From Eledone cirrhosa (taxonomy: Eukaryota), in the NCBI GenBank assembly GCA_964016885.1, contig OZ024743.1, forward strand, positions 308,140,001 to 308,204,000: a DNA stretch of 64,000 nt, written 5' to 3'. The notes beneath the pieces were generated by a model. It worked only from the letters and a program-made list of their open reading frames with translations, was not told the DNA's origin and made no database searches. The position numbers and the translations under genes were made by a program. Position 1 is the stretch's first letter. Every line of letters begins with the position of its first letter. This document shows positions 6,745 through 63,223 of the stretch, in pieces.

Positions 6745-6863
6745 ATAGGAAAAGAGTCGGGACCCCAACGGCTGAGCTCCGGCCGTTCGACAGCTAGATC
6801 CGAACGGATCTAGCTGTCGAAACGGCCGGAGCTCAGCCGTCAGGGTCCCGACTCTTTTCCTAT
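6745..6863. repeat. Fold-back palindrome containing an HHR 3' half
   Basis: Arms of about 58 bp around an AA loop (6803-6804). The right arm reads GAAAC-GGC...GCC-GTC-AGGG. A single-arm copy lies at 58738-58795. Confidence 0.85.
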
Positions 6864-7269
6864 ATACATATATATAATTGGTTTGGGATGCTTAAAGCGT
6901 CCGTAAGCGGTAGGCCGTTTGAGCACTCGATGCTCTTACAGAGCAGAGTTCTTATGTGATATATATATATATATATATATATATATACCGCGATAAATTA
7001 ACGGAGCCATAGACTCTCGTTATTCCCTGTCAATAATGTGTTTTAATGTGCAATATTGTATTTCATATATATATATATATATATACATATACATATGGAT
7101 CAGCATCAATTTTGACGGCGCGGGCACACTAGTAAATAATAAAGAAGCGTTTCATTCATTTTCATGAATAGTACAGAAAGTAAGCAGGCGGAACATGACT
7201 AAAAACAAAAAGGATTTCCCCGTTCCTTTCCATATTCATATTTACATATACAGCCACACACACACACAA

Positions 7270-8560
7270 ATACATACATATACATATATATATATATATA
7301 TATACATATATATATACGTACATGTATATATATATTTATATATATATATATATATATATATATATATATATATATATATATAAATATATATATATATATA
7401 CATATATACAATATATATATATATATATATTATATATATATGTATATATATATATATATATATATATATATATATATATATATATATATATATATATACA
7501 AATATATATGTATATATATATATATATATATATATATATATATATATATATATATATATATATATATATATATATATATACATATATATATACATATATA
7601 TTTGTATATATATATATATATATAAATATGTATATATATATACATGGTAGTAGTGAGTATGTGTATGAGTGTATGTGTGTGTGTGTGTGTGTGTGTGTGT
7701 GTGTGTGTGTATACAATTTGTCAACAGTATCATATCGTTGTCGTACTTAAAGTGTCGCATGCTGAGAGACAATGAGGTTGGTATAGAAAAGAAAGCAGTT
7801 GCTTGTCACATGACTAATTATGGTTGCTTGAAGCAATCACATGACCTAATTCCGATGTCATATGCAGACATATTTAAAATATGATACCAGTGGATAACCA
7901 TTCTGTTTGTGTGTATATTTGTGTGTACACACACACACACACACACACACACACACACATATATATATATATATATATATATATATATATATATATATAT
8001 ATATATATATATGTATATATATATATATATACAGATATATACATACACATATATATATATATATATATATATGTGTGTGTGCGTGTGCATTATGTATATA
8101 TGTATGTATGTATATATATATATGTATAATATACATGCATATACATAGATATACACATATATTATCTCTCTCTCTCTCTATATATATATATATATGTGTG
8201 TGTGTATATATATATATATATATATATATATATATATAGATATATATGTATGCAGAGGTTATATTTAATTTGTTGGGATTCAATAAGCTTAAAAATGTTA
8301 TAACTGATATAAAGCACTCAACCGATTAGTGGAGTAATTACACAATATATTAATAAATGGAAACTATATTTATAAAACCATATTTATTTTATTATACATA
8401 TTGCATAAATATATATATATATACATATAAACTTGATTTCTCTCTCTCTCTCCCTCTCTCTCTCTCTGTCTGTCTGTCTCTCTCTCTCTCTCTCTTTCTC
8501 TCTCTCTCTCTCTCTCTCTCTCTCTCTCTCTCTCTCTCTCTCTCTCTCTCTCTCTGACTC
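7270..8560. repeat. (TA)n/(TG)n/(TC)n microsatellite field
   Basis: Directly visible. It is the source of the YIYI/VCVC ORFs. Confidence 0.95.
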
Positions 8561-8724
8561 TTTCAGTACGAAATTTTCTGCAAAGTCACAAGTTAAGTAA
8601 TGTGTTTAGCAGTCGACTGTTTGTTTACAACGATTTTAGGCAAAATAAACGACCACACAAACAACTCTGCAATCGGATAGAGTTTCAAACATATTTTTGA
8701 TGATGGTGAGTGGTATACTATAAA

Positions 8725-9252
8725 ACACTTGTTGTGGTTCATATTCTGTAGAGCACGGCATGTGAATAGTGGTTTTAAGAAGATTAACGGTGGAATGTGT
8801 TCTATAGATCGGTATAGAACACTTGTGTTTGATATTCTATAGAACACGACATATGGAAAGTATTTTTAAGAAGATTAACGGTGGAATGTGTTCTATAGAG
8901 TGGTATTCTATAGAATATTCGTGGTTGATATTCTGTAGAGCACGGCATGTGGATAGTGGTTTTAAGAAGATTAACGGTGGAATGTATTCTATAGATCGGT
9001 ATTCTATAGAGTGGTATTCTATAGAATATTTGTGGTTGATATTCTGTAGATCATTGTATTCTATAGATCGGTATTCTATAGAGTGGTATTCTATAAAATA
9101 TTTGTGGTTGATATTCTGTAGATCATTGTATTCTATAGATCGGTATTCTATAGAGTGGTATTCTATAGAATATTTGTGGTTGATATTCTGTAGAGCATGG
9201 CATGTGAATGGCGGTTTTAAGAATATTAACGGTGGAATGTGTTCTATAGAGT
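8725..9252. repeat. Complex minisatellite built from TATTCTATAGA subunits
   Basis: 15-bp subrepeats are nested in roughly 75-110 bp units. Confidence 0.85.
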
Positions 9253-9889
9253 ACTAGTTGGTAATGCTTTCCTACGAACACGGATGAGGGATAATATTTA
9301 ATATATTTCTAGTTGTTATATTCTGTATTGCTATATTGTTGTATTTCTGAGTTATATTTATATTTATCTTTATTATTAAATTAAATAAAAGCCTCGAATG
9401 CTGGTTGCTGATTTAGGCACGAAGTCAACAATTTTTGGGGAAGGGAAATTAACCTCAGTGCATTACTGGTACTTTATTTATATTGACCGCGAAAGAAGGA
9501 AACCGGAGGGATTTGAACTCACAGCGTAAAGGGACGTACATATATACCGCAAGGTATGTTGTCCGACGCTCCACCGATTACTGCCAATCCACCACCCTTA
9601 AAAGCTTTTGAAAAATAATAACAATTTAGGCATTAGTACGTTTAATTAAAGATGTAGATGAGTAAAACCGCCGTCACACTGTTACCAAAGCAACAAACAG
9701 AATTACTGATCCAAAGTTCTTCAAAAAGATCCTAGCAGATGGTTCCACTGACGAGGAATATATCTGTTGGAAGGGGATTATGAATATTTTCATGATAAAG
9801 TTAAGGCTTGGTTCTACCATACAAATTGTTTTAACGGTTTTGATACAAAAACTGCCTAAACCATCGCTGGTTCTAAAATATAAGCTGTT

Positions 9890-10140
9890 TTGTTGATGAT
9901 GATGGTCGCCGTCGTCGCCATCGTCGTCATCGTTGTCATCGTGGTGGTGGTGGTAATGATGATGATGACGTTGATAGTGTTGGTGGTGGTGATGATGGTG
10001 GTGTTACTGATAGTGATGGTGGTAATGATGATGGCGGAAGTGATTGTGATGATGCTGTTGGCAGTGGTAATGATGATGATGATGATGATGATGATGATTG
10101 ATGATGATGCTGATAATGATGGCAATGGTGGTGGTGATGA
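9890..10140. repeat. (GAT/GGT)n trinucleotide microsatellite
   Basis: Directly visible. Confidence 0.9.
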
Positions 10141-60644: not shown

Positions 60645-60930
60645 TCACGTGGCCCTCTGGTAGGGGTGTTGGACTTATGACCATAATGTCGTGGCGTCGA
60701 TTCCTGGACTAGGCTGTGTGTTGTGTTCTTGAGCAAAATACTTCATTTCACGTTGTTTCAGTATATTCAGCTGAAAATGAATACCAGCAATATCTGGGGC
60801 GTTAACTCTACGATAGACTGGCGTCCTGTCAAGGGGTGGGGCGTTGACCCTCCGTTGGACTAGCGTCCTGCCAAGGGGAGGGCTCTTGTACACTCTGTCG
60901 CTTTACACCACGGAAACCGACATAAGCAAT
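60645..60930 (+). mobile_element. Second tRNA-derived SINE family
   Basis: A/B-box-like GTGGCCCTCTGG...GTCGATTCC, then TTGTGTTCTTGAGCAA. Related pieces at about 39570-39620 and 46560-46655 (-). Confidence 0.6.
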
Positions 60931-61225
60931 GGCATGATGAAAATCCGGAAACTTTAGAGTTAAGAAAACCTTATTGATTCCCTTCCACAACTGAGAACCT
61001 TTCAATTATCCATGTGACGAAATATGCTTAATGAACCAACTATTAATACCGCAAAACTCCATAAAAATCTTCGATGTTTAGTTTAACTGATTTCAAATGT
61101 GAAATTAACTTCGATGTTAACTGATTTCAAATGAGAAACTAATCTCAAGTATATTTGAAAAAACATAGTCTGAACCCGGCATGACATTAAAGTTAAATCA
61201 AAGAATTAATATTGCCTTACATATA

Positions 61226-61428
61226 CGAAGGTCGGCTGAAAAGTTCATAGCATAAGCTGACCAAGATACTATTCTAAAATGACCAAATGAGGTTTATTTT
61301 TCAACATAGTCCCTGGAAAGAAATAATGCAGTTATTAATAAGAAGAGTTGAAATTAATGCATGCAAGATTTCACAGCTCTAGCATCAATCCTTCGTAGTG
61401 AGCATATGAACTTTTCAATCTACCCTCG
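61226..61428. mobile_element. mariner-like MITE
   Basis: TA|CGAAGGTCGGCTGAAAAGTTCATA ... TATGAACTTTTCAATCTACCCTCG|TA. Confidence 0.7.
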
Positions 61429-61797
61429 TAAATACTTGAGACCCTCGTAAATACTTGAGAATATATAATAAAGGAGTTATCAACGATCAATGGCAGTAGG
61501 GTTTAGGGAGTTAAAAGTACTAGCTAACTTCAAGCTATCGAAAAATGTCGTACTTAAATAGGGAAAGCCCTGTTGAGTTGTTTAAGAACTACTCCCAAAA
61601 TAGTTATTTTTCATGAAGCAGGATTAACTCCTCCTCACTCGTTGATAGAAGGATATAGGAAGCTTAAATTACTAACTGATCAGTTTAAATGAAAATGAAA
61701 ACAATATATTTGACTTCCGCATGAATAAAACAATTAAAATACTTCAAAATAACAATTTAAACATTCAAAAGAAGCAAACTGTTTTAGGAACTGGGTC

Positions 61798-62180
61798 AGT
61801 TATACAGATGGGTCAGATTCAGACAATGGAGTAAGGAGTGGAGCTACTTGGTCTTTTCAAAACAATAATACAGATATGAGCTTCAGATTACACTTCACAA
61901 TATTTGACGCAGAGAGGTGGGGGATGATATCATCCATAGACTCGGCTAAAGAAACGCTATGGGTAAAAGGTTTTCTATTTAATTATAGTTTATCGAACCT
62001 AGAACAGTTTCAGTAAAAAAAAAAAGAGGTCGGGTTTGAGGTTTTGGGTGTCCTGCTAAGAATAAATAACTATCTACCGGACAATAATAAACAAGTAGCA
62101 ATGATTTGGATACCAGGCCATACAGATATTAGAGGAAATAAAAAAGCAGATGAATTAGCAAAGGAGGGAGTACAAAGGAA
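61798..62180 (+). mobile_element. Decayed RNase H domain of a LINE (I/R1/Ingi-type)
   Basis: YTDGS at about 61801, and WIPGHTDIRGNKKADELAKEG. Confidence 0.75.
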
Positions 62181-62917
62181 AATAATAATGATTTCTGATT
62201 TAGGCACAAGGCCAGCAATTTTGGGGGAGGGGAAAGTCGATTAAATCGACCCCAGTGTGTTACTGGTACTTTATTTTATCGACCTCGTAAGGATGAGAGG
62301 CAAAGCTAACGTCGGCGGGATTTGAACTCAGAACGTAAAGGCCCGTTACACAATGCCGTGAAGCATGGGGCCTGACGCTCTACCGATACTGTCAATCCGA
62401 AATAATAATAGAATTCGATTCTCCCTAGTGGTTGCTACACTTTTTTTCCGTCCATAGGGGTATTTTACCCGATTTTCGAAGCTATTATTTATAGTAATCG
62501 ACTGTATTTACAGTTTTTTCTACGTCTGAGTTCCTAAACATTTTCTATGAGTTTCATAATTCCTCACCGCTTTACATACAATGTTGTTTATATATATATG
62601 TGTGTGTGTGTGTAATCATTCTATATATATATATATATATATATATATATATATATATATATATATATATATATATATATATACACATATATTATATATG
62701 TGTGTGTGTGTGTAATCATTATATATATATATATATATATATATATATATATATATATATATATATATATATATAATATATATATATATTATATATGTGT
62801 GTATTTATATGTATATATATATAAGAAGAAGGGATATTCAATTTGTTGGTAATTCAACAAATATAAATGTTTATAACTGATTCAGAGCACTCGACAATTT
62901 TTCTGGAGTATAATATT

Positions 62918-63223
62918 CAATGATATTAAATAAAGGGAAACTATATTTATAAAACCATATTTATTCTATTATATATATTTCAAGGGTACCAAAACTTTGG
63001 TACGCTATCATCAGATAAAATACGAAGTGTGTTTTATAAATTTTGACATAACCAAGTAAAATACCTTAACGGTTCAAGTTTTCCTTGGATAGTGACTAAA
63101 TTTATAAGACACACTTCGTATTTTATCTGATGATAGCGTACTAAAGTTTTAGAACCCTTGAAATATATATAATAGAATTAATATGGTTTAATAAATATAG
63201 TTTCCATTTATTTAATATCATTG
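62918..63223. repeat. Fold-back (62918-63043 / 63098-63223) with HHRs at 62963-63021 (-) and 63120-63178 (+)
   Basis: ATTTTAT-CTGATGA-tAGcGTACC...GGTACcCTt-GAAA-TATATA-TA-ATAGAAT. A related fragment lies at 8255-8405. Confidence 0.85.

Follow-up and report, generated by a model that had tools for sequence, protein, structure and literature searches.

How does one stretch of cephalopod DNA come to hold so many inverted repeats that carry a self-cleaving RNA motif and always face the same way? The window, i.e. the whole stretch of 64,000 nucleotides analysed here (Eledone cirrhosa, contig OZ024743.1; C4:308140001-308204000), comes from a 3.0-Gb genome in 1,796 contigs and is AT-rich, with many (TA)n tracts. 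A first-pass annotation had described 11 inverted-repeat units, each beside (TA)n and each with a full or partial type I hammerhead ribozyme, as a family-independent class of ribozyme elements, most of which had lost all coding sequence. The units are almost certainly 5'-truncated, head-to-head insertions of endonuclease-bearing Penelope-like elements (PLEs), and the hammerhead is a passenger of the PLE pseudo-long terminal repeat (pLTR). The two arms of a unit were likely copied from one template.

Inverted units and their hammerheads

Masked self-comparison of the window located inverted arms at all 11 coordinates named in the first-pass annotation, so the units are real. They are named here by the start of the left arm, which moves five of the earlier names (20448 = 20818, 30147 = 30150, 36666 = 36679, 49411 = 49417, 49925 = 49930); the family of unit 49417 is called the 49411 family. 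Arm-to-arm identity is highest in 49930 (646/647) and 49417 (194/195), and falls to about 75% at the other extreme (80/95 in 30150; 67 identities, 19 mismatches and 9 gaps in 58360). Two further inverted units of the same build, 19599 and 63323, are ribozyme-free and were absent from the earlier list; L046 holds a unit similar to 19599 (by eye), and the family of 63323 was found again in evenly spaced genome stretches. The features are as follows, with strand where a feature has one.

6666..6863: unit 6745, a 119-bp hairpin (6745-6863) with a tail of about 78 nt on the left (minus-strand) arm; half hammerhead cut inside stem II
19564..20436: unlisted unit 19599, arms 19599-19812 and 20140-20350; tail and partial tandem on the right; tailless left end with (CT)7, then (TA)n; no hammerhead match in the arms
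20444..20516, minus strand: inverted copy of the right flank of unit 20818, copying 21726-21798 at 100%, part of an old dispersed repeat
20818..21502: unit 20818, arms 20818-21090 and 21230-21502; tails at both ends; partial tandem in the spacer
21297-21342, plus strand: hammerhead of unit 20818, U3-A8, intact; the left-arm copy has A9C
30150..30339: unit 30150, a decayed hairpin; 3' half of a hammerhead; tailless right end on (TA)n
36679..37162: unit 36679; strict hammerheads at 36785-36836 (minus) and 36961-37012 (plus); 26-nt tail on the right only
40506..41683: unit 40506, a nested palindrome; strict hammerheads at 40678-40756 (minus) and 41348-41426 (plus)
49376..49806: unit 49417, a perfect 390-bp palindrome with a zero-loop centre (49611/49612) and a 41-nt left tail (49376-49416); probably the 3' end of a Neptune-type PLE pLTR, with a non-canonical core
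49930..51827: unit 49930, arms 49930-50576 and 51015-51661; sense spacer; right tail of about 160 nt; U4C core; a coding remnant, likely the endonuclease C-terminal part (by eye, no Pfam match)
53576..53654, plus strand: solo pLTR fragment, U3-A8 core, related to unit 49417
53727..53830, minus strand: (CT)n run of about 51 units that separates unit 53831, on its tailless left side, from (TA)n
53831..56013: unit 53831, a minus-strand 5'-truncated PLE with an inverted short copy (55615-56013); U3-A8 core
54938-55636, minus strand: coding remnant of unit 53831, reverse transcriptase (RT) C-terminus and GIY-YIG
56014..56039, plus strand: (CT)13 at the tailless right end of unit 53831, then (TA)n
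58368..58620: unit 58360, a decayed hairpin; 3' half of a hammerhead; right end passing into (AC)n
58738..58793, plus strand: solo 6745-family arm with a (TA)n tract on each side
59847..59977: unit 59850, a 97-bp hairpin; 3' half of a hammerhead; tailless right end with a CT-rich run, then (TA)n
62824..63227: unit 62918, arms 62918-63048 and 63093-63223; CTGATGA...GAAA core; mismatched stem II base; left tail
63262..63416: unlisted unit 63323, a 94-bp hairpin (63323-63416) with a left tail; no hammerhead in the arms

At the junction of arm and spacer in unit 49930 (50562-50601) there are three short templated repeats, as in slippage or end-joining.

Hammerheads were sought with our own strict type I descriptor (C3-G8 or U3-A8 core), with reversed and three shuffled sequences as controls. 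The window gave 7 matches against 0 reversed (one per arm in 36679 and 40506, one in the right arm only of 20818, two solo), and a genome sample of 60 evenly spaced 10-kb stretches (600 kb) gave 48 against 1 reversed and 0/0/0 shuffled. No hammerhead was among the 150 of 245 Rfam matches listed for the window, and Rfam gave none at the gathering score for six loci. The earlier claim that every named unit carries a full or partial hammerhead holds for full, variant and half motifs taken together; strict ones occur on both arms in only 2/11 (36679, 40506) and on the right arm alone in 20818. Read from the sequence, 49417 has GCAA instead of GAAA, 49930 has CCGAAGA, stem I is weak in 53831, one stem II base is mismatched in 62918, and four units (6745, 30150, 59850, 58360) keep only the 3' half, GAAA-stem III-UH. 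The units were also said to be mostly unrelated, but three families are shared: 20818 with 36679 (77-86%), 6745 with 58738 and 49417 with 53576. Contact with (TA)n was likewise correct for one end; in many units the opposite end carries a tail of 26-160 nt, and in 53831, 19599 and 59850 a (CT)n run comes before the (TA)n (by eye in the last two).

The orientation rule, left arm antisense and right arm sense, proved correct. It is followed by 10/10 scored window units (58360 was matched on one arm only), the direction of half-motif units resting on our own reading of GAAA...UH. For the genome sample a motif-only library was used, made of the strict matches less one doubtful entry (L060:3335, likely false) plus 8 window motifs. 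It found 97 homologous sites, 51 of them within mirrored inverted repeats that make up 23 units, and all 23 have their 3' ends facing out (P=2e-7), which rules out random orientation; 13 of the 23 match strict ribozymes. In the 49411 family, 29/29 opposite-strand pairs within 6 kb are consistent among the first 100 arms listed. A first pass with flanks in the library had given 34 outward and 3 inward pairs; the inward calls all came from one entry with flanking sequence, probably a dispersed repeat, and were rejected when they vanished with the motif-only library. The orientation of the units is not due to chance. Extrapolation from 23 units per 600 kb gives a lower bound of about 115,000 hammerhead-bearing pairs per genome. 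The same sample holds 42 one-tailed inverted repeats beside (TA)n, some of which may be pairs of separate copies, and 24/42 have no match to the hammerhead library. The head-to-head layout is therefore a property of the insertion rather than of the ribozyme. Comparable hairpins lacking the ribozyme are equally common, and a family-independent class of ribozyme elements is not supported.

Derivation from Penelope-like elements

The units map to the 3' ends of pLTRs in full-length parents with two open reading frames (ORFs), as is seen for unit 49417 with the full copy L346. This copy consists of pLTR, tail, ORF1 (455 aa), ORF2, untranslated region (UTR) and pLTR, so that it carries two direct pLTRs in a partial-tandem structure. 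Its ORF2 has a reverse transcriptase domain (PF00078, E 9.8e-7; 29.1 bits, just under the cut-off of 29.6), and downstream of it a CxxxxCxxC linker followed by GIY-YIG (PF01541, E 8.8e-8). The tail is the sequence immediately 5' of ORF1, and runs into the 5' region of ORF1 in most of 30 read-through loci; in most copies the 49417 arm extends upstream into the 3' UTR and the ORF. Contrary to what had been supposed for most units, coding sequence was not lost: they correspond to the 3' ends of full-length PLEs, and 49930 and 53831 retain coding remnants, the spacer of 53831 matching the RT end of L346 at 42% and its endonuclease at 58%. Pfam found nothing significant for five window ORFs. The suggestion that the units derive from PLEs and target (TA)n was borne out.

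A CX2-5CxxC linker precedes GIY-YIG in L202, L209, L346 and window 55115-55636. Such a linker marks Neptune/Nematis-type PLEs (PMC8557442). To judge by this motif the parent of unit 49417 is a Neptune-type PLE, while other window units may come from other PLE clades. At 43137-44967 (plus strand) lie disrupted frames of PLE-type RT and GIY-like character in which a CxC...C motif can be read. They match neither the Neptune-type parent L346 in tblastn nor, at significance, any Pfam family, and probably belong to another PLE clade.

In the 6745 family, the hammerhead of the relative L165 is complete, with a U3-A8 core and a long stem II, and the hairpins are left with half a ribozyme because they stop inside the loop of an L165-type stem II. 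No full-length parent of this family was found. L217 is a sister family of the 6745 hairpin, with a covarying stem III and a near-palindromic centre of its own. In the young 49411 family the hammerhead core is non-canonical even in the full-length copy, which is why the ribozyme is regarded as a passenger.

Arms probably copied from one template

The first-pass annotation left it to be decided whether a given hairpin recurs at many loci or is unique. In the 49411 family one exact zero-loop centre recurs at 489 loci, within a set of 4,907 arms that mostly lie outside the recurring hairpin and grade continuously into full-length PLEs. An inverted partner is present at about 18/28 distinct loci of the 36679 family, with junctions that differ by locus (by eye), and centres of 0-2 nt in the 6745 family fall within a few bases of each other yet differ (hairpin as query; 22 loci among the matches listed).

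Arms were compared in the first 49 recurring-centre hairpins and in 20 spaced units of the 49411 family, both in genome order. The tail is on one end only in 34 of the 49 hairpins, 13 have one shortened arm and 2 are tailless; a single tail was also found in 28/29 two-armed units picked by similarity. At site 118 the two arms carry the same allele throughout (9 TT, 30 CC, 0 discordant; n=39, P=4e-8), and at site 13 they are discordant in 1/46 hairpins and 1/20 spaced units (P=2e-4). In the fetched DNA of L291 the arms carry different alleles (A/G). At four loci 9-13 subfamily variants are present on both arms, and of the private variants in hairpins 22 are on both arms and 36 on one. Across several subfamilies, arms match better within a locus than same-side arms do across loci. 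Both arms of a unit were thus likely copied from one template. Since the arms share locus-specific haplotypes despite their identical centre, the 489-fold hairpin has likely been rebuilt at each insertion, on different subfamily backgrounds: it recurs, but probably not as a mobile unit.

(CT)n runs at tailless ends

The ends of the 53831 family were surveyed in 38 fetched regions and the window. The native internal end reads TCTCT and then ATAT. At least five CT units precede (TA)n at 24/27 tailless ends (22 by script, with L400 and L406 added by eye), and there are up to 49 of them. At all 20 tail ends the native motif is still short. Had the insertion split a (CT)n target, (AG)n should remain in the outer flank of these ends, but it is there in only 1/20; among two-armed units, 6/7 pair a (CT)n side with an opposite side free of (AG)n. 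As background, (CT)5+ lies before 13/2,904 (TA)n ends, and the 600 kb contain a single (TA)(CT)(TA) sandwich. Two of the 49 young hairpins of the 49411 family show such runs as well: one native CT is followed by (CT)10 in one and by (CT)25 in the other, and here too the opposite side lacks (AG)n. In the 600-kb sample, (TA)n directly follows 40/42 tailless ends and (CT)n the remaining 2, and the effect is therefore family-dependent.

The simplest reading of these patterns is that (CT)n would be made by repeat synthesis at priming, while later expansion of a tiny CT seed beside (TA)n may also produce such runs. No account of slippage at PLE ends was found in the literature searched, and for a fold-back account only PMC3846280 was on point; supplements lay outside the search and may hold junction data. 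A broader proposal, about as likely as not, is that the PLE RT itself generates new dinucleotide repeats on starting at a (TA)n primer, recopying an internal template of 2-5 nt as its relative telomerase does. PLEs would then make and lengthen their apparent target microsatellites, and would write some 10^5 self-rebuilding hairpins by priming both ends on one RNA. The (TA)n beside young hairpins has a summed median of 60 against a length-weighted background of 24, a comparison confounded by age and by 801-bp windows.

Proposed priming from both target ends

We lean, with some reserve, towards the reading that both cut (TA)n ends prime reverse transcription on one element RNA and that the two cDNAs are joined at their 3' ends. 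The GIY-YIG endonuclease would cut both strands within (TA)n; one target end would prime at the tail end of the RNA, while priming from the other would take place 26-160 nt further upstream, at a TA/TAT motif within the element. The enzyme would probably stutter on the last template dinucleotide, and so add (CT)n and perhaps (TA)n. The second synthesis would displace the first cDNA from the RNA, and the second cDNA, on stopping or running off the RNA 5' end, would jump or be end-joined to the 3' end of the other, with the two cDNAs joined through 0-7 nt of microhomology. If both copies ran off the same RNA 5' end beside a 4-nt palindrome, an identical perfect hairpin would be rebuilt repeatedly. 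The hammerhead would be carried along in the pLTR, masked in read-through RNA.

Units terminate at two fixed points, with and without the tail. A PLE protein studied in vitro cuts both strands and extends them, beginning at two internal sites that bound the tail, and needs no ribozyme cleavage (PMC11167929); jumps of the template from one end to another have been reported for non-LTR RTs (PMC8857657). Zero-loop centres lie at GATC, TCGA and TTAA, which fits the annealing of two identical ends better than a fold. The recurring centre would mark the RNA 5' end, or transcription start, as suggested by the TATA-like CATAAAAA about 30 nt before it. Separately, the 49411-family copies L326, L327 and L333 start at the TATA-like motif upstream of that centre. 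Beyond the two ends of this family only weak hairpins are predicted (-1.4, -1.9 kcal/mol). Two candidate explanations were rejected: that the native stem II loop is retained at 6745-family centres, and that short arms usually come from run-off at the 5' pLTR (short arms of spaced units start at scattered positions).

Several points weigh against double priming on one RNA. Of the 20 spaced units, 15 have a tail arm that extends further 5', 3 have a tailless arm that does so, 1 has arms of equal reach and 1 has two tails (by eye, 2 weak); a longer tail arm in 15/18 unequal units (P=0.008) is what a folded-back first cDNA predicts outright. The 73-bp flank copy at unit 20818, whose right side continues into the old repeat, is 100% identical with no other genome copy at that identity, and needs DNA-templated copying, at insertion or after breakage of the hairpin; such a flank repeat is found in 1/46 hairpins tested, and that case looks older. 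The promoter of Drosophila Penelope is TATA-less and internal (PMC2377424). Site 118 is discordant in 7/29 of the similarity-picked set, probably a result of selecting for the window allele. The ratio of private variants on both arms to those on one is also higher for zero-spacer hairpins (18:35) than for spaced units (3:23; P=0.056, Fisher test), and some arm symmetry may arise after insertion, by arm-to-arm correction. A 6745-family hairpin at L043:2467-2965 is centred in a larger 96.6% palindrome, the outer 190 bp of which are another element; it is a possible second case of flank copying.

The longer tail arm bears most directly on snap-back, in which a short palindrome or microhomology lets the first-strand cDNA fold onto itself; copying then proceeds back in the direction of the target, and the product is joined to the other target end at the internal TA motif, spacers being flipped later by recombination between the arms. 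Snap-back would also give arms that share haplotypes and private variants, the junctions of L185 and L221 (native loop of 6-8 nt, microhomology of 2-3 nt) and the run-through flank copy at 20444, and it is unlikely rather than negligible. It needs spacer flips for the 3/18 units with a longer tailless arm, and also for the small loops of L185 and L193, which are mirror images. Self-priming is difficult at zero-loop centres of 4 nt, where there is no room for a loop, nor is there in the 0-2-nt centres of the 6745 family. That (CT)n occurs at tailless ends and within no tail arm suggests an event at initiation, and CT runs at both tailless ends of unit 53831, (CT)51 and (CT)13, count against simple snap-back. 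Self-priming on antisense read-through RNA, giving an RNA-DNA hairpin that is then integrated, was proposed for rotifer PLEs from palindromic head-to-head junctions (PMC3846280). It would yield identical arms and could carry flank, but the flank at 20444 has no source copy elsewhere and the fixed sense-side ends match the in vitro start sites on sense RNA (PMC11167929), which makes it improbable here.

It is also improbable, and slightly more so, that the hairpins move whole as non-autonomous elements, resembling either miniature inverted-repeat transposable elements (MITEs) or ambisense rod RNAs. The identical centre at 489 loci and the near-fixed centre of the 6745 family are what such mobility would give; the closer match of arms within a locus than across loci, the continuum of the 4,907 arms to full-length PLEs and the locus-specific junctions of the 36679 family are not, and the ribozymes are halved, mutated or predicted to be masked. 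A MITE or fold-back DNA transposon fails to fit as well, for the ends are asymmetric (the tail is one-sided) while the arms are symmetric per locus. Fold-back chimeras of assembly or library come to mind with arms more than 99% identical (49930, 49417) and with the 49930 junction, bridged by none of the contigs listed (387 further rows follow these). One-sided tails, family-specific ends and arm divergence of up to 20% in old units make this origin very improbable. A contig of run X3 moreover spans a 49417-type centre (33 + 52 letters; its 8 differences mark another copy, and the run is possibly of the assembly's own sample).

Read-through RNA

The units had been likened to retrozymes or viroids of ambisense design. 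Each strand of a unit has the antisense arm first and then one sense ribozyme. In minimum-energy folding of seven units, 40/41 to 79/79 ribozyme bases are paired with the other arm (7/7), so the ribozyme is predicted to be buried in read-through RNA, and the viroid-like comparison fails on this account. Moreover, one ribozyme per strand cannot excise a unit-length monomer for circularisation. Hairpin double-stranded RNA (dsRNA) from read-through, also raised earlier, is plausible. No RNA run appears among the sequencing runs listed with matching sequence.

Other repeats were seen in the sampled stretches. Inverted duplications beside (TA)n at L075:7775-8156, L083:3737-4983 and L067:9135-9859, two apparently pointing inward, look like what we take to be 3' ends of long interspersed elements (LINEs). 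Retrozyme-like arrays, in which units of about 310 bp follow one another head to tail and each contains a strict hammerhead, lie at L057:245-3387 and L060:8596-9717 (11 and 4 copies). The L060 array bears an inverted copy at its 5' end, which fits retrozymes using PLE machinery (bioRxiv 10.64898/2026.07.22.740005).

Other features of the window

Broken frames at 24589-26353 (plus strand) resemble what is presumably a hAT transposase of GTF2IRD2/SPIN type, and one dispersed repeat resembles what we take to be a cephalopod short interspersed element. Minisatellite arrays occupy 34905-35548 (period 91/184), 57494-58071 (about 95), 17503-17835 (62) and 8734-9198 (72-96). Older, imperfect MITE-like inverted repeats (69-79%) with no hammerhead match lie at 57266-57491, 32496-32658, 63556-63849 and 27916-28501.

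Comparison with known systems

The young families, with thousands of copies, make the origin of PLE inverted repeats testable by counting, and the shared haplotypes, two fixed ends, recurring centre and family-specific (CT)n give predictions for the existing in vitro system. New here are the quantitative support for one template, the 489-fold centre that was likely rebuilt, and a sign of repeat synthesis at priming. The PLE RT is the sister group of telomerase RT; telomerase adds repeats, and short template repeats are linked to slippage at the start of reverse transcription. If the runs were enzyme-made, this would be a telomerase-like stutter in telomerase's sister group, and part of the microsatellite load in such genomes would be retroelement-made. 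About 10^5 short hairpins would be ready dsRNA substrates; in octopus, the potential for long near-perfect dsRNA and hyper-editing are both high (PMC5625713).

The layout is already in print (PMC8557442, PMC3846280, PMC4209133), and the units are not a separate class of ribozyme element. Craig et al. (2021, PMC8557442) described insertions of endonuclease-positive PLEs that bear, at the 5' end, a 5'-truncated copy in inverted orientation, and that have a one-sided tail and a (TA)n bias, and stated the formation of the inverted repeat and the microsatellite preference as open. The inverted 5'-truncated copy, partial tandems, (TA)n targets and pLTR hammerhead are alike here; the tails differ (30-40 bp at one end there, 26-160 nt in the window), most units here are only 0.1-0.5 kb, and some 10^5 hammerhead-bearing pairs are extrapolated per genome. 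The Penelope elements of Adineta vaga (Arkhipova et al. 2013, PMC3846280) share the head-to-head arrangement with a palindromic junction, an optional tail and TATA/Inr-like pLTR motifs. That study inferred self-priming on an antisense template from few copies, whereas the counts of haplotypes, ends and junctions obtained here agree better with one sense RNA primed twice. Hammerhead pairs on opposite strands, 100-700 bp from each other (Schistosoma), a U3-A8 core, a short palindromic helix III and a long helix II are all known (PMC4209133) and found again here, but several Eledone units stop inside helix II with half a ribozyme, and one young family has GCAA for GAAA.

The Poseidon PLE of the green anole, studied in vitro (Frangieh et al. 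2024, PMC11167929), is alike in its two internal RT starts bounding the tail, AT-rich cleavage, extension of both strands and dispensable ribozyme; it belongs to a different clade, and the available part of that report mentions neither an inverted product nor repeat addition. Template slippage is known at LINE 3' ends (UnaL2 TGTAA, I-factor TAA; PMC3747384), whereas the seed here, unlike in LINEs or telomerase, would be an internal CT of 1-3 units at an internal start, with runs reaching 5-49 units. Non-LTR retrozymes are likewise PLE-derived and non-coding with a type I hammerhead (bioRxiv 10.64898/2026.07.22.740005), but they form head-to-tail arrays that need two ribozymes on the same strand, while the units of the window have one, or half of one, per strand.

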